From: an uncultured bacterium
GTDB taxonomy: Bacteria > RBG-13-61-14 > DATKZS01
Length of the DNA: 37,754 nucleotides
Reading direction: 5' to 3'
Assembly: GCA_964650485.1 (NCBI GenBank)
Contig: CAZYTX010000032.1
Location: forward strand, 1 to 37,754
Shown here: positions 1 to 37,754 of the stretch, piece by piece
How the letters are laid out: every line of letters starts with the position of its first letter
How positions within the stretch are numbered: position 1 is the stretch's first letter
Program-made: the position numbers and the translations under genes
Notes under the pieces: generated by a model
What the model was told of the DNA's origin: nothing
The model's database searches: none
What the model saw: the letters and a program-made list of their open reading frames with translations, nothing else

Positions 1-269
1 TTGTGGTCTTAAAAAAACTCCCCTCTCACCCATAGTAAAAGTGTTGCAGTTCCGCTAATTACAGGTTGACAAAAATTCACTCGCCACGGAAAATCGTGTC
101 ACTGCCCCGCCCCTAACTATTTGAAATAACATAAACCGCGTTTCCAGTCGCCTCTAAAAAAACTAAAATCGTGGCACGATTTTTCAGAAAAACCGTCCAA
201 ATGAAATTAACAGAAGAGGAGCGAGGAGCGGGTAGCGGGACCTGCGCCCGCCCGTATTATTTTAGTGCC

Positions 270-641
270 TCACTGCCCCCGGCTTTCGAACAGGCCAAGC
301 TGCCCGGGCGCCTCGGCCGGCCCTGTCCAGTCCCCTGCGATGCTGCATGATTCAGGGGCCAGGTCCGGGTTCTTACAGGCGCACACCTTCACCGCCACCC
401 CGTGCTCGCGGCCGGCCTCCACTACGCGCTCCAGTATCTTTGCCCGCTCGCGCCCCGGCAGCGCCATGACCCCGCCCTCGCCCGGATAAGAGCTGTAGCC
501 CCGGCTGTAGCAGTACACGCACCCGTGTGCGCACCCCGCGGTCAGGTTCACAGTGGGAATCTTCGACAGGCAGGCGATGCTGGAGGGCGCCAGCACGCTC
601 GACTTGCGACGGGCCTTGATCGTCTCGACCATTTTTGTCAC
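270..641 (-). pseudogene. Radical SAM protein, SplB-like (COG1533 DNA-repair-photolyase family), N-terminal fragment only (123 aa)
   Basis: The ORF has a CAHGCVYCY motif (CxxxCxxC radical-SAM cluster) in a context typical of spore-photoproduct-lyase-like proteins, which are normally ~300 aa. It stops after 123 aa and runs into an AT-rich non-coding flank (1-260). I take it as truncated. Confidence 0.5.
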
Positions 642-672
642 CGCTCTTTATTACCTGTCATTATATCATAGT

Positions 673-735
673 ATGACTTGCGAGCAGCAGCTTTTGCAAC
701 TGATCGAGCCCGGCGCCCGGGTGTGGCCGGCGTCT
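673..735 (+). pseudogene. Decayed duplicate of the tilS 5' end (MTCEQQLLQLIEPGARV...)
   Basis: About 60 nt here (gagcagcagcttttgcaactgatcgagcccggcgcccgggtg-tggccggc) are near-identical to tilS nt ~1643-1705 apart from a 1-nt deletion. The translated piece matches the TilS N-terminus VEQELLQLLEPGARVV. Confidence 0.55.
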
Positions 736-923
736 TTGGCGGGCAGGGCCCTCAAAACTCACAGCTAAAAAACCATGCCCTGACTTTGATGAGCTCACTC
801 GAATCAAGCATGCTTGCAGTGAGCAGAGCCGAATTGTCGAAGGGTCACACCTGAGAAGTTCTTGACACAATGCCCTTAGCGGTCTAATCTACTGGTATAT
901 TGATATACAAGAGGAGGTGTGTC

Positions 924-1163
924 ATGCCCACTGCCACGGTCCGCATACCCGAGGAAAAAAGAGATATCCTTAAGATTATCGCCACCATAGAGAAGACTGA
1001 CATCAAGGAGATACTGTCCGAGCTCATTGACGAGTACATCTTAAGGCACAAGGAGACCCTCGATCTCCTCTCAAGGCCCGAGTGGGTTGAGGCCATCGCC
1101 CAGGGCAAGGAGCAAGTGGAAAAGGGCGTTAAAGGTAAGTTGCCGGATGAGCTGGAGGATTGA
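924..1163 (+). CDS. Ribbon-helix-helix family antitoxin (type II TA)
   Basis: Translation MPTATVRIPEEKRDILKIIA... shows an N-terminal RHH-like beta-strand/helix pattern. RBS GAGGAGG lies 6 nt upstream of ATG 924. The gene overlaps the downstream toxin gene by 17 nt. Confidence 0.6.
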   Translation: MPTATVRIPEEKRDILKIIATIEKTDIKEILSELIDEYILRHKETLDLLSRPEWVEAIAQGKEQVEKGVKGKLPDELED

Positions 1164-1413
1164 GGTCAAGCCCGCAGCGGAGAAGCAGTATTCAAAGCTC
1201 GACAAGAACACGAGGCAGAGGGTCAAACAGGCCCTCCGCGAGCTCGAAGCAGAACAGACATTGCTTGCCGCGCCCAATGTGAGGCCCCTCACAGGAAGAC
1301 TGAAGGGCGACTTCAGGATGAGGGTGGGACGCTTGCGCCTGCTTTTCACTCCGGACACCGAATCCAGGACAATACACGTATACGCCATACTTCCCAGGGG
1401 GGATGCACATTGA
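1147..1413 (+). CDS. RelE/ParE family toxin (type II TA)
   Basis: Translation MSWRIEVKPAAEKQYSKLDK...RVKQALRELE...LKGDFRMRVGRLRLLFTPDTESRTIHVYAILPRGDA follows the conserved RelE/ParE pattern, including the ...RVGDYRIIY...I.I.RI.HR-like C-terminus. It is translationally coupled to the upstream antitoxin. Confidence 0.7.
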   Translation: MSWRIEVKPAAEKQYSKLDKNTRQRVKQALRELEAEQTLLAAPNVRPLTGRLKGDFRMRVGRLRLLFTPDTESRTIHVYAILPRGDAH

Positions 1414-1498
1414 TGTAATCATATCCCGGAAAAGACTCCCTCCCTGTGAAAATAGACGTTTTATTCTGTGAAAAAGGCGGGGTTGCATGTCCCCCGCT

Positions 1499-1527
1499 TG
1501 AACCGCGGCCCTGCTTGTATTATCTTA
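1499..1527 (+). promoter_or_regulatory. Possible sigma-70 promoter for the tRNA (TTGAAC-N17-TATCTT)
   Basis: TTGAAC at 1499 is followed by a 17-nt spacer and TATCTT, about 15 nt upstream of tRNA nt 1. Confidence 0.3.
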
Positions 1528-1542
1528 CTTAAGGTTGTTGAG

Positions 1543-1619
1543 GGCGGCGTAGCTCAGGAGGTCAGAGCATGCGGCTCATATCCGCAGAGTCCGGGGTTCG
1601 AATCCCTGCGCCGCCACCA
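1543..1619 (+). tRNA. tRNA with CAT anticodon: elongator tRNA-Met or tRNA-Ile2 (lysidine, LAU), including encoded CCA
   Basis: I hand-folded a cloverleaf. The acceptor stem GGCGGCG pairs with CGCCGCC, the D-arm is GCTC/GAGC, the anticodon stem TGCGG pairs with CCGCA with loop CTCATAT (anticodon CAT), and the T-arm is CGGGG-TTCGAAT-CCCTG, followed by discriminator A and CCA. It is not an initiator: the 1:72 pair is G-C and the anticodon stem lacks the 3xGC run. Confidence 0.85.
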
Positions 1620-1624
1620 TCTTA

Positions 1625-3082
1625 ATGGACCCCCTTGTCAAAAGAGTCGAGCAGGAGCTTTTGCAACTGCTCGAGCCCGGCGCCCGGGTGGTGGCCGGCA
1701 TCTCCGGCGGCCCCGACTCGGTGGCGCTTGTGTCAATTCTGCTTGCGCTCGCCCCGTCGCTTCGTATCCAGGTCTTTGGCGCCCATTTGAACCACGGCAT
1801 GCGGGGCGAGGAGTCCGACCGGGACCAGGCCTGGGTAAAAGAGCTTTGCGAGCGCATGGGTGTGGAGCTTTTGACCGAGAGGCTGGAGCAGCCGCCGGAG
1901 GCGAACATAGAGAGCAGGATGAGGGACGCGCGCTACCGGTTCCTGCTCCAGGCCGCGGGTAAGAAAGAGGCCAAGTACGTGGCAGTGGGCCACCACGCGG
2001 ACGACCTTGCCGAGACCGTGCTCATAAACCTCATGCGGGGGGCCGGGCCGGCTGGTCTCTCCGGCATGGCCCCCTTGCGTGCCGCGGGCGGTCCGGGCAG
2101 TGAAATCTACATTGTCCGGCCGCTCCTCCCGGTCCGCCGGGCCGAGATCATGGGCTTTCTCGAGCGCGAGGGCCTGTCGTGGCGCGAGGACTCCAGTAAC
2201 CTTGACCCGCGCTTTATGCGCAACCGTGTGAGGCGCGAGCTTCTCCCGCTGATGGAGGAGGTCAGCCCCGGCGCTTCCGAGGCCCTGGTGCGCGCGGCCG
2301 AGGTCACAAGGGCCGAGTCCGAGGCCCTGCAAGGGCTTGCAAAGGAGTGGCTGCGCGAGAAGGGCAGGGCAGGGGAGTCCTCGGTGGAGATCGAGCTGGC
2401 CCCCCTGCGCGAGCTGGCCCCGGGCTTTCGAATGGCCGTTTACAGGGAGGCGGTGTGCATGGCAGCGGGGGGCCTCGCCCGGATCGAGAGGACGCACCTC
2501 GCTGCCGTGGACGAGCTGGCCCTGGAGGGCCCGGCCCACGGGTCCCTGGACCTGCCGGGGATAGCTGTCCGCCGCGAGTACGAGGTCATGTCCATTGTCC
2601 CCGCCGCTGAGCCTGCAAAGCCTGCGGAAGGCGCGGAGCAGCCCTTTTCCGCGCCTGCATGCGAGATCGAGCTCCCCATACCAGGAAGCATAAGCTGGCC
2701 CGGCCCCAGGGGACACGAGCTTACCGTGTCCGCTGAGCTCATCGCGCCTTCCGATGAAAAGCCCGACTTTCGCAGCGAGGCCCTGCTGGACCCGGAGAAG
2801 ACCGGGGACAGTATCCTGGTGCGCACCAGGCGGCTGGGCGAGAGGTACAGGCCCGGCGGAATGACCGGGGCACGCAAGCTCAAAGACGTGTTCAACGACC
2901 TCAAGGTCCCGCCCCGGGACCGGGGCTGCTGGCCCTTGATCTCGTGCCAAGACCGGGTGGTGTGGGTGCCGGGAATGAGGCCGGCACAGGGGTTCGGGGC
3001 TCCGCGCGACGCGGCCGGCGCGGTCAGGGTGCGGGTGTCGCCCCCCATACTTACCCGCATGGGCGGAAAAAAGAGGCGTTGA
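1625..3082 (+). CDS. tilS: tRNA(Ile)-lysidine synthetase TilS
   Basis: The N-terminus carries the PP-loop SGGxDS motif (ISGGPDSVALV). Length and domain order are TilS-like, with a C-terminal substrate-binding region. The gene starts 5 nt after the tRNA(CAT). Confidence 0.9.
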   Translation: MDPLVKRVEQELLQLLEPGARVVAGISGGPDSVALVSILLALAPSLRIQVFGAHLNHGMRGEESDRDQAWVKELCERMGVELLTERLEQPPEANIESRMRDARYRFLLQAAGKKEAKYVAVGHHADDLAETVLINLMRGAGPAGLSGMAPLRAAGGPGSEIYIVRPLLPVRRAEIMGFLEREGLSWREDSSNLDPRFMRNRVRRELLPLMEEVSPGASEALVRAAEVTRAESEALQGLAKEWLREKGRAGESSVEIELAPLRELAPGFRMAVYREAVCMAAGGLARIERTHLAAVDELALEGPAHGSLDLPGIAVRREYEVMSIVPAAEPAKPAEGAEQPFSAPACEIELPIPGSISWPGPRGHELTVSAELIAPSDEKPDFRSEALLDPEKTGDSILVRTRRLGERYRPGGMTGARKLKDVFNDLKVPPRDRGCWPLISCQDRVVWVPGMRPAQGFGAPRDAAGAVRVRVSPPILTRMGGKKRR

Positions 3083-3094
3083 GTCAGTCCTTCC

Positions 3095-3565
3095 TTATGG
3101 GGCCCCAAAGCACCGGCGGCGGCGAGGGCCCTGATGCAGGAGGGATGAGCATGCTCGCGATCCAGCCGCCGACCCACACCACCACGCTGGTGAGAACGCC
3201 CGCCATGATGGGGCCCCAGGGGACTTGAGCCAGGGAACGCTCGATGCCAGGAACCCGCCGTAGTTCTCCGAGCCCCACACCGTGACCAGAACGCCGAGCA
3301 CCACGCCGACCAGCACCGGGAGCATCAGGCCCTGCACCGGGTACTGCCAGTCGTCCACGAAAGACTTGCCCGGGTAGGCCACGTAGGTGACGCTGGATAT
3401 GCAGGTGCCCAGGATGGAAAGGCCCACCGCCCAGCCCGGCAGCCTCCGGCCGGCCACGAAACAGTACTCCGTATCACGGGTCCGCCGGCTGAGCCAGACG
3501 CCCAGGCCCACCACTATGGCGAAGTAAACCCCCAGGATGCATAAGTCGAAAACGCCGAGGTGCAT
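3095..3565 (-). pseudogene. Sodium:solute symporter (SSF) family, N-terminal remnant
   Basis: Translation MHLGVFDLCILGVYFAIVVGLGVWLSRRTRDTEYCFVAGRRLPGWAVGLSILGTCISSVTYVAYPGKSF contains the SSF signature (DYFLAGR-like). After ~100 aa the frame becomes non-membrane-like. A further TM segment appears in another frame (3084..3278), and the gene runs into the convergent tilS. Confidence 0.55.
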
Positions 3566-5777: not shown

Positions 5778-6137
5778 TGGTGGAGGCGGCGGGAATCGAA
5801 CCCGCGTCCGGAGACCTTCACCCCGGGGCTGCTACGTGCGTATCCCGCGCTTGATTTTAACCCAAAACCGCCGCGCGGGCGCGGAAGCTTTTGGCGATCC
5901 CCCTCTTTGATTCAACTCCTTGCAAGGCTGAGGGCTTTCCCGCAAGGGGTCGTCCTGTCTTCATTGCGCCCGGGTCCGTCCCGACAGGAGAGGACGGTCG
6001 GACGTCGCGGTCTTTACGCCGCGAGGGCGTAATCAACAGATTCGCCGTTTAAAAAGGCGCCGCTGTTTAACGTGCTTGCGGCAGCACGGCACGCTCCCGC
6101 AGGGCTCAACTGTCCCCGTCGAACCCATTTCGCCCCC
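5778..6137 (-). ncRNA. ssrA: tmRNA (ssrA), ~360 nt
   Basis: The reverse complement has a tRNA-Ala-like 5' end GGGGGCGAAATGGGTTCGACGGGG with a G3:U70 pair. The 3' end is GGACGCGGGTTCGATTCCCGCCGCCTCCACCA (T-arm plus CCA). An internal tag reading frame ...AAC GGC GAA TCT GTT GAT TAC GCC CTC GCG GCG TAA gives (A)NGESVDYALAA, ending in the canonical YALAA. Confidence 0.9.
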
Positions 6138-37608: not shown

Positions 37609-37681
37609 AGGCTGCACCTGCGGCTATTCAAATTGTTTCCCTTCGGGAAAAAACCGACCCAGGCTGCACCTGCGGCTATTC
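37609..37681. repeat. Two 21-nt direct repeats (AGGCTGCACCTGCGGCTATTC) separated by 31 nt
   Basis: Exact copies lie at 37609-37629 and 37661-37681, downstream of glgP among several short hairpins. Confidence 0.6.
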
Positions 37682-37754
37682 TCTCCTCTTTTGTTAACTT
37701 CATTTGGACGGAGATTCGGGGGTTTTGGGGAAATTCTAAAATGCCTTGTCAAGT

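Follow-up and report, generated by a model that had tools for sequence, protein, structure and literature searches.

In the contig CAZYTX010000032.1 of an uncultured bacterium, the tRNA-modification gene tilS is preceded, about 1 kb upstream, by a decayed remnant of its own 5' part. The window analysed here (37,754 nucleotides (nt)) is the entire NCBI contig. The remnant (copy A) and the corresponding segment of the working gene (copy B) form a direct repeat whose copies are separated by about 0.9 kb. Between them are found only an antitoxin open reading frame (ORF), a toxin gene of the RelE/ParE superfamily and a tRNA gene with the anticodon CAT (tRNA(CAT)). This content, first noticed in a preliminary description made from the letters alone, is confirmed by the ORFs, the match to family PF05016 and the tRNA predictions. 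The arrangement is a genuine recombination scar of a rather ordinary kind, located in a stretch of chromosome that loses DNA. We tentatively favour as its origin a single recombination with DNA of a related genome that carried the toxin-antitoxin (TA) module, the tRNA and a tilS start, with a homologous crossover inside tilS and an illegitimate join at tilS nt 86. The direction of this event, i.e. which of the two copies was resident, is what we infer. The coordinates of all features are collected in Table 1.

The alignment of the window with itself reveals 41 identical positions out of 43 between 681-723 and 1648-1690 and, past one nucleotide that copy A lacks, 16 out of 19 between 724-742 and 1692-1710. 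Over the complete repeat (681-742 versus 1648-1710), 57 of the 63 columns are identical (90.5%; blastn E-value of 2.7e-18 within the window). The local alignment of tilS nt 1-100 with window positions 1-1600 has a score of 50, to be compared with 13.3 +/- 1.8 (maximum 19) for 300 composition-preserving block shuffles. The preliminary description had announced a decayed tilS copy with a 1-nt indel and had proposed to align the two segments, expecting about 60 bp at about 90% identity; this was obtained and is significant against the shuffles. Its coordinates (673-735 and 1643-1705) were displaced by 5 to 8 nt. The homology is sharply bounded at either end and starts, on the left, at tilS codon 9. 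Codons 1 to 8 (MDPLVKRV) are missing from the stub and are replaced by an in-frame ATG ACT TGC, so the duplication is partial and does not comprise the whole 5' end of the gene, as had been supposed. On the right, the homology stops within the PP-loop motif, which reads FGGQG in the stub and SGGPDS in the gene.

The ATGACTTG stub ORF, behind its promoter-like site, has no family match in the profile search, and a function for its 31 codons is unlikely. A scan of positions 1-1800 detected four promoter-like sites for 0.8 expected. The one at 635-664 lies immediately upstream of the stub and, judging from the letters, the transcript expected from the layout of this site and of the stub ATG would be leaderless or nearly so. 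Copy A is thus still behind a promoter-like site, as initially described. A promoter-like site placed 8 nt before an in-frame ATG is unlikely for a random deletion endpoint and fits a displaced, once-functional gene start. The duplicated tilS segment is absent from the 105 other tilS loci that were compared, all of them distant (at most 52% TilS identity), so the window is alone among 106 loci. This speaks for a single event and against an element dedicated to tilS.

According to the explanation that we favour, the resident tilS, next to a radical S-adenosylmethionine (SAM) gene, would have begun with ATG ACT TGC followed by codon 9 onwards, a short start behind a leaderless-type promoter of its own. 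The incoming DNA, from a related bacterium, would have brought a tilS start together with the TA operon and with the tRNA(CAT) usual in the clade and the promoter of this tRNA. On the right, homology would have guided a crossover within tilS; the join on the left, at tilS nt 86, would be illegitimate or site-specific. The resident 5' end would have been displaced and not replaced, persisting as the 62-nt stub behind its promoter, and the TA module may help to protect the insert from deletion. Since the stub is only 1 kb from tilS, homology to tilS presumably guided the event, the random landing of a foreign stub at this place being very unlikely. Both the tRNA and the MDPLVK start conform to the type of the clade, hence the donor would be a relative. 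An insert flanked by the repeats must comprise the tRNA and tilS codons 1 to 8; if the tRNA-tilS unit is resident, the stub must be an ectopic leftover. The small size of the insert (about 0.9 kb), with no integrase in the scanned ORFs of the contig, also counts for this explanation, and so do the low GC content of the segment, the intact TA operon and the deletions nearby.

The DNA between the two copies has a foreign composition, with a GC content of 47-58% over approximately 743-1500 versus 66-70% in the flanking genes. The toxin gene is intact. Its product scores above the family threshold, resembles the structure PDB 2khe (E = 5e-5) and has over 500 homologues with identities of 63-73%, several of them named RelE/ParE, from sources that include Acidobacteriota, Thermoanaerobaculales and Deltaproteobacteria proteins of metagenome-assembled genomes. 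The putative antitoxin matches no Pfam, NCBIfam or PADLOC entry; it resembles the ribbon-helix-helix (RHH) proteins by pattern only, its match to the Omega repressor, an RHH protein, being non-significant (E = 0.39). A toxin above its family threshold, preceded by a small overlapping gene with a promoter and a palindrome, corresponds to a type II TA system. With its own promoter, operator-like site and Shine-Dalgarno sequence, the operon looks functional. No protein-family match was found for the ORFs of its leader, and no terminal inverted repeats were found around the module. The predicted fold of 1405-1545 is unremarkable (z = 0.24), and positions 1-1650 gave no plasmid or phage matches except for the tRNA.

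The working tilS encodes a complete TilS, with the PP-loop ATPase domain (SGGPDS at residues 27-32), the substrate-binding domain and the C-terminal domain. Its N-terminus, MDPLVKRVE, is typical of the clade, and ATG 1625 is the homologous start because the MDPLVK N-terminus is common to the relatives. The database protein of the same contig (P0001, 473 aa) starts at TTG 1661, 12 codons after this ATG. An exact look-up of the 485-aa TilS gave no match.

As had been noted, only 5 nt separate the tRNA from the tilS ATG. The tRNA does not have the characters of an initiator tRNA-fMet, as positions 1 and 72 are paired (G1-C72), positions 11 and 24 are C11-G24 and the anticodon stem (TGCGG/CCGCA) is devoid of a GGG/CCC run. 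According to Silva et al. 2006 (PMC1635315), tRNA-Ile(CAT) is indicated by G3 or A3, or by C70 or T70, with C4-G69 and C5-G68 frequent, and tRNA-Met usually has C3-G70. The window tRNA and all the elongator-type tRNAs linked to tilS display C3-G70, G4-C69 and G5-C68, and none of the tRNA-Ile2 indicators is present in the window tRNA. These pairs point, with moderate confidence and by acceptor-stem rules only, to what is probably an elongator tRNA-Met rather than a tRNA-Ile2, i.e. to a tRNA that TilS must reject and not to its substrate. Typing by similarity gave no match in E. coli genomes, and the phage matches carry mixed "tRNA-Met" and "tRNA-Ile" labels. Since tilS has neither promoter, terminator nor ribosome-binding site of its own upstream, its transcription should start at the tRNA promoter, for which a counterpart (TTGACC-17-TATCTT) exists at the equivalent place in one relative (L026; L-numbers are our labels for the loci compared). 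Once the tRNA 3' end has been processed, the tilS mRNA would have a leader of at most 5 nt and would be nearly leaderless.

The closest TilS relatives share 43-52% identity with the window protein. No close genome was detected, the best aligned segments reaching 24-46% identity in the scan of genome contigs and 29-42% in the scan of metagenome contigs. Four of the seven informative members of the clade have the same tRNA(CAT) on the tilS strand, upstream of the gene; it is not found there in L024, L027 and L113. L025, the closest relative, has a tRNA whose 3' half shares 96% identity with that of the window tRNA. The spacers of the relatives have 69-196 nt versus 5 nt in the window, and contain a terminator hairpin, detected by the scan tool in L025 and L115 and by eye in the other loci. 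The short spacer of the window is consequently a local accident and not a conserved design. At greater distance, 15 tRNA genes were found near 80 metagenomic tilS loci, and 11 of them have a CAT anticodon. In L030, L037 and L077 an elongator-type tRNA(CAT) precedes tilS by 98-105 nt, and an initiator-type tRNA(CAT) is also located upstream of tilS in L067 and L037. The linked elongator-type tRNAs have the acceptor stem GGCGGYG. As identities among the TilS proteins of these deeper loci are only 31-52%, the linkage is either ancient or recurrent.

According to sequence comparison, the tRNA(CAT)-tilS unit is the ancestral arrangement of the clade. This unit, and the promoter hexamers shared with L026, argue against the idea that the tRNA was the cargo of an unrelated element. 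That idea, implied in the preliminary description, is contradicted by the same tRNA-tilS order in L025, L026, L115-L117, L030, L037 and L077. By eye, L025 has a possible leaderless promoter, TTGTAA-17-TATGTT-6-ATG, which is below the scan threshold and is only a hint. The 5-nt junction between the tRNA and the gene and the recurrent tRNA(CAT)-tilS linkage are the most interesting side observations of this work. The recurrence of the linkage across very divergent bacteria is its more general by-product, and may deserve a systematic survey.

Several observations weigh against the favoured explanation. The ancestral-type features, i.e. the upstream tRNA and the MDPLVK start, are carried by the working copy, so the displaced allele must be a derived one that had lost both. 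The conserved N-terminus of the relatives, MD(P)L(V)K..VE, is present in the working copy and not in the stub, and the shortened N-terminus of the stub type exists in none of 10 relatives. Among the seven informative clade members, the tRNA linkage has been lost in three and the N-terminus in none. For simple alleles, the divergence is uneven: the first eight codons are wholly different, and identity is 95% over the 43 nt that follow. Whichever model is chosen, one more event has to be assumed for the 5-nt spacer. The databases searched contain no genome above 52% TilS identity, hence no empty-site comparison. Finally, the junction between the tRNA and tilS is seen in this contig only, the Logan contigs ending inside the tRNA (1589-1591).

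A different origin, with the tRNA(CAT)-tilS unit resident and untouched, can be imagined. The stub would then result from a tandem duplication (TA leader, TA module, tRNA and tilS nt 1-86), followed by deletions that trimmed the first copy and fused the upstream region of the radical-SAM gene to tilS nt 24. Such a course would agree with a tRNA-tilS synteny that is ancestral in the clade and beyond and with the high identity of the tRNA 3' half to that of L025; it predicts exactly the observed junction between tilS nt 86 and the TA leader, and large deletions are demonstrated in the region. It requires, however, at least three events, it turns the in-frame ATG and the promoter-like site of the stub into coincidences, and the divergence of about 8% plus an indel implies that a useless stub survived for long in a deletion-prone locus. 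We regard this course of events as rather improbable.

The favoured recombination must also be compared with a site-specific integrative island that entered the 5' end of tilS and then decayed, an origin that seems unlikely to us. The two copies would represent attL and attR, the element would have given the tRNA promoter and the new start, and its integrase would have been deleted later with the bulk of the cargo, the TA module excepted. The sharp-edged 62-nt direct repeats around DNA of foreign composition are those expected of att sites, the target gene is intact with a substitute 5' end, and the large deletions at the locus could have taken the integrase. TA modules are typical stabilisers of islands (for example PMC8978831), and elements that enter and yet preserve the 5' ends of conserved genes are known (PMC8409611 and PMC7192596). 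However, no integrase or recombinase is present between the repeats, nor any recombinase domain in the 20 large ORFs of the contig that were scanned, in agreement with the absence of an integrase first reported for the window. Only 0.9 kb is found between the repeats, none of the 105 other tilS loci has a tilS-derived repeat that would indicate recurrent use of the target, and the end of the element would have to be exactly the clade-native tRNA(CAT)-tilS unit. Our literature search found no text that names tilS as an attachment site. Of the site-specific scar first proposed, the partial tilS duplication around a foreign TA module is retained. The interpretation of the two copies as attP next to attB was rejected; the element would then have the tRNA on its wrong side. 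It is highly unlikely that the repeats are the att sites of an undescribed class of elements that targets the 5' end of tilS and carries a tRNA(CAT) 5 nt before a replacement tilS start. If this were true, the essential tilS would be re-expressed as a tRNA-punctuated leaderless transcript, and the deep and patchy tRNA(CAT)-tilS linkage would partly reflect such elements.

The assembly was controlled with the Logan contigs L109 and L110 (runs SRR7048220 and SRR7048218), which match the window at 100% over 413-1591 and 433-1589, respectively, and contain the same TA gene pair. Owing to this match in two runs, the order of radical-SAM junction, stub, TA module and 5' two-thirds of the tRNA is not the artefact of one assembler. 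Logan contigs of several unrelated samples break in the same tRNA(CAT), where L025 and L115 start. The tRNA(CAT) is therefore a branch point of the assembly graph, and the tRNA-tilS junction of the window is without independent support. The window being the whole contig, from which the database tilS call also comes, no sequence is available to the left of position 1. A chimera, in which a stub-TA-tRNA block and a tRNA-tilS block that are not truly adjacent were joined through the shared 77-nt tRNA, would explain why the contigs of both runs stop inside the tRNA and why the junction is observed in this contig alone. The branch may equally be due to tRNA k-mers common to related organisms. The stub-TA-tRNA arrangement is real in itself, and the contig could not contain a tRNA 3' end at 5 nt from the tilS ATG if no reads did. 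We consider a chimera very improbable indeed.

Deletions are observed in both neighbours of the locus. The radical-SAM gene (SplB/PA0069-like), on the left, had been described as cut at the boundary with the AT-rich end of the contig; this is incorrect, as the deletion is internal and in frame, and the natural C-terminal region is present. By BLASTP, residues 1-55 match residues 1-54 of P0245/P0244 and residues 55-102 match residues 254-301. In the HMMER scan, the full-length homologues (310-345 aa) match in two stretches. The deletion junction is near nt 466-470, inside the part covered by both Logan contigs. The remaining sequence keeps the CxxxCxxC motif, the natural start, the C-terminal region and the stop, and has lost most of the core: PF04055 is matched over residues 31-80 only (the first 40 of 166 Pfam positions), NCBIfam PA0069 over positions 56-84 of 348, and the equivalents of residues 55-253 of the full-length homologues are missing. 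The supposition that this gene normally adjoins tilS does not hold in any of the relatives examined, including L024-L028 and L111-L112; in those with an intact homologue, tilS is not adjacent. The radical-SAM gene of L024 was considered as a homologue and discarded as unrelated. The only close homologue of the fragment (73% over the N-terminus) is in L028 (3265-3657). It is disrupted too, at about codon 61, by lower-GC sequence and not by a deletion. It lies about 2.3 kb downstream of a transfer-messenger RNA (tmRNA) gene; the tmRNA gene of the window is about 5 kb away, with the same relative orientation.

On the right, the sodium:solute symporter (SSF) remnant retains residues 1-79 and 459-491, mutually out of frame, with about 1.1 kb (about 380 codons) deleted internally. 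An intact SSF gene follows tilS in L024 and L025. The loss of about 200 codons in the radical-SAM gene and of about 380 in the SSF gene, and the spacer of 5 nt versus 69-196 nt, point to a deletion-prone locus. The rest of the contig is ordinary chromosome, with the genes of RNase G, carB, glycogen phosphorylase and tmRNA. The tmRNA (5778-6137, minus strand; Rfam 157.9 bits; tag peptide GESVDYALAA) is encoded about 2.7 kb downstream of tilS. In the AT-rich left end, the ORF 171-350 has no Pfam or NCBIfam match. A 29-nt motif, CCGTCCAAATGAARTTAACARAAGAGGAG, occurs once near each end of the contig, at 193-221 (plus strand) and inverted at 37683-37711 (minus strand). Shuffles are expected to yield none. 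A small ORF beginning with MKLT(E/K)EER starts at each copy, and none of the 117 loci retrieved has the motif. Just inside the right contig end, directly after the 29-nt motif, the 20-nt sequence AATAGCCGCAGGTGCAGCCT is present as a direct repeat (37609-37628 and 37661-37680, minus strand, 52 nt apart).

Table 1. Features around tilS in the window and tRNA(CAT)-tilS loci of other bacteria (coordinates of each locus in its own numbering).
Feature	Position	Strand	Remarks
AT-rich region, left contig end	1-269	.	Downstream of the radical-SAM pseudogene
Palindrome	165-183		Within 1-269
GC hairpin	235-251		Within 1-269
Radical-SAM (SplB/PA0069-like) pseudogene	270-632	-	In-frame internal deletion, ~200 codons
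Promoter-like site TTGTCA-18-CATTAT, TG-extended	635-664	+	8 nt 5' of the stub ATG
Stub ORF, 31 codons, MTCEQQLLQLIEPGARV...	673-768	+	Frameshift relative to tilS after codon 17
Copy A, 62-nt tilS remnant	681-742	+	Corresponds to tilS nt 24-86, codons 9-29
TA operon leader	743-923	+	GC ~47-54%
Predicted TA promoter TTGACA-17-TAATCT	862-867 and 885-890	+	Read from sequence
Palindromic operator-like site GTATATTGATATAC	895-908	+	Read from sequence
Predicted Shine-Dalgarno GAGGAGG of the TA operon	911-917	+	Read from sequence
Putative antitoxin, 79 aa	924-1163	+	17-nt overlap with the toxin gene
RelE/ParE-superfamily toxin, 88 aa, intact	1147-1413	+	PF05016 30.3 bits (cut-off 23)
Predicted tRNA promoter TTGAAC-17-TATCTT	1498-1526	+	Read from alignment; below scan threshold
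tRNA(CAT), elongator type, CCA encoded	1543-1619	+	ARAGORN; Rfam RF00005 65.7 bits
tRNA-tilS spacer TCTTA, 5 nt	1620-1624	+	No terminator, promoter or Shine-Dalgarno
tilS, intact, 485 aa	1625-3082	+	PF01171 166.6, PF11734 65.5, PF09179 24.2 bits
Copy B of the repeat	1648-1710	+	Inside intact tilS
SSF pseudogene	3144-3565	-	tblastn with the L024 and L025 SSF proteins
tRNA(CAT)-tilS, window	1543-1625
tRNA(CAT)-tilS, L025	1-175		Spacer 122 nt (tRNA cut by contig end)
tRNA(CAT)-tilS, L026	7729-8003		Spacer 196 nt
tRNA(CAT)-tilS, L115	1-122		Spacer 69 nt (L115-L117)
tRNA(CAT)-tilS, L030 (deeper)	5817-5992
tRNA(CAT)-tilS, L037 (deeper)	507-807
tRNA(CAT)-tilS, L067 (deeper)	5795-5992
tRNA(CAT)-tilS, L077 (deeper)	2608-2788

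If the favoured recombination is true, the locus represents a clean natural case of an essential gene whose 5' end was swapped through related DNA, with the old start fossilised beside it and the gene left dependent on a tRNA promoter across a 5-nt junction free of a Shine-Dalgarno sequence. Such a case is relevant to illegitimate recombination, to leaderless translation and to tRNA-mRNA processing, and opens no new question in these fields.

The E. coli unit thrU-tyrU-glyT-thrT-tufB is a co-transcription unit of tRNAs and an mRNA. The window resembles it by a protein gene directly 3' of a tRNA, with no terminator or promoter between them and a presumed dependence on tRNA processing. It differs by a spacer of only 5 nt without Shine-Dalgarno sequence, so that the mRNA would be nearly leaderless.

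Homology-facilitated illegitimate recombination has been described for natural transformation. There, as is proposed for the window, one homologous crossover and one illegitimate join insert a short foreign segment, the sequence of the recipient is duplicated beside an insert of about 1 kb and a recombinase gene is not needed. In the window, such a process is proposed from one sequence.

Elements of the SXT/R391 family integrate in prfC. The likeness of the window to the dusA- and prfC-type islands is a target gene that is intact with a substitute start and promoter. The dusA-associated islands (PMC8409611) also have a partial copy of the target 5' end as a direct repeat around foreign DNA, and the target is here, as for elements that use dusA or trmE, a tRNA-modification gene. 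Unlike these islands, the window has no integrase, the segment is of about 0.9 kb and the repeat is long (62 nt) and imperfect. Moreover, the start is of the clade-ancestral type and is accompanied by a tRNA gene, and there is no recurrence at other tilS loci. As cargo, the RelE/ParE module is comparable to HipAB of a Shewanella island (PMC8978831) by its overlapping two-gene operon, its operator-like palindrome, its GC content below that of the host and its position within an acquired segment; it differs by an antitoxin that matches no curated family. Target duplications around acquired DNA, TA cargo and the replacement of gene starts are thus already known. What is new is this instance at an unusual gene, without the recombinase that membership of the dusA- and prfC-type islands would need.

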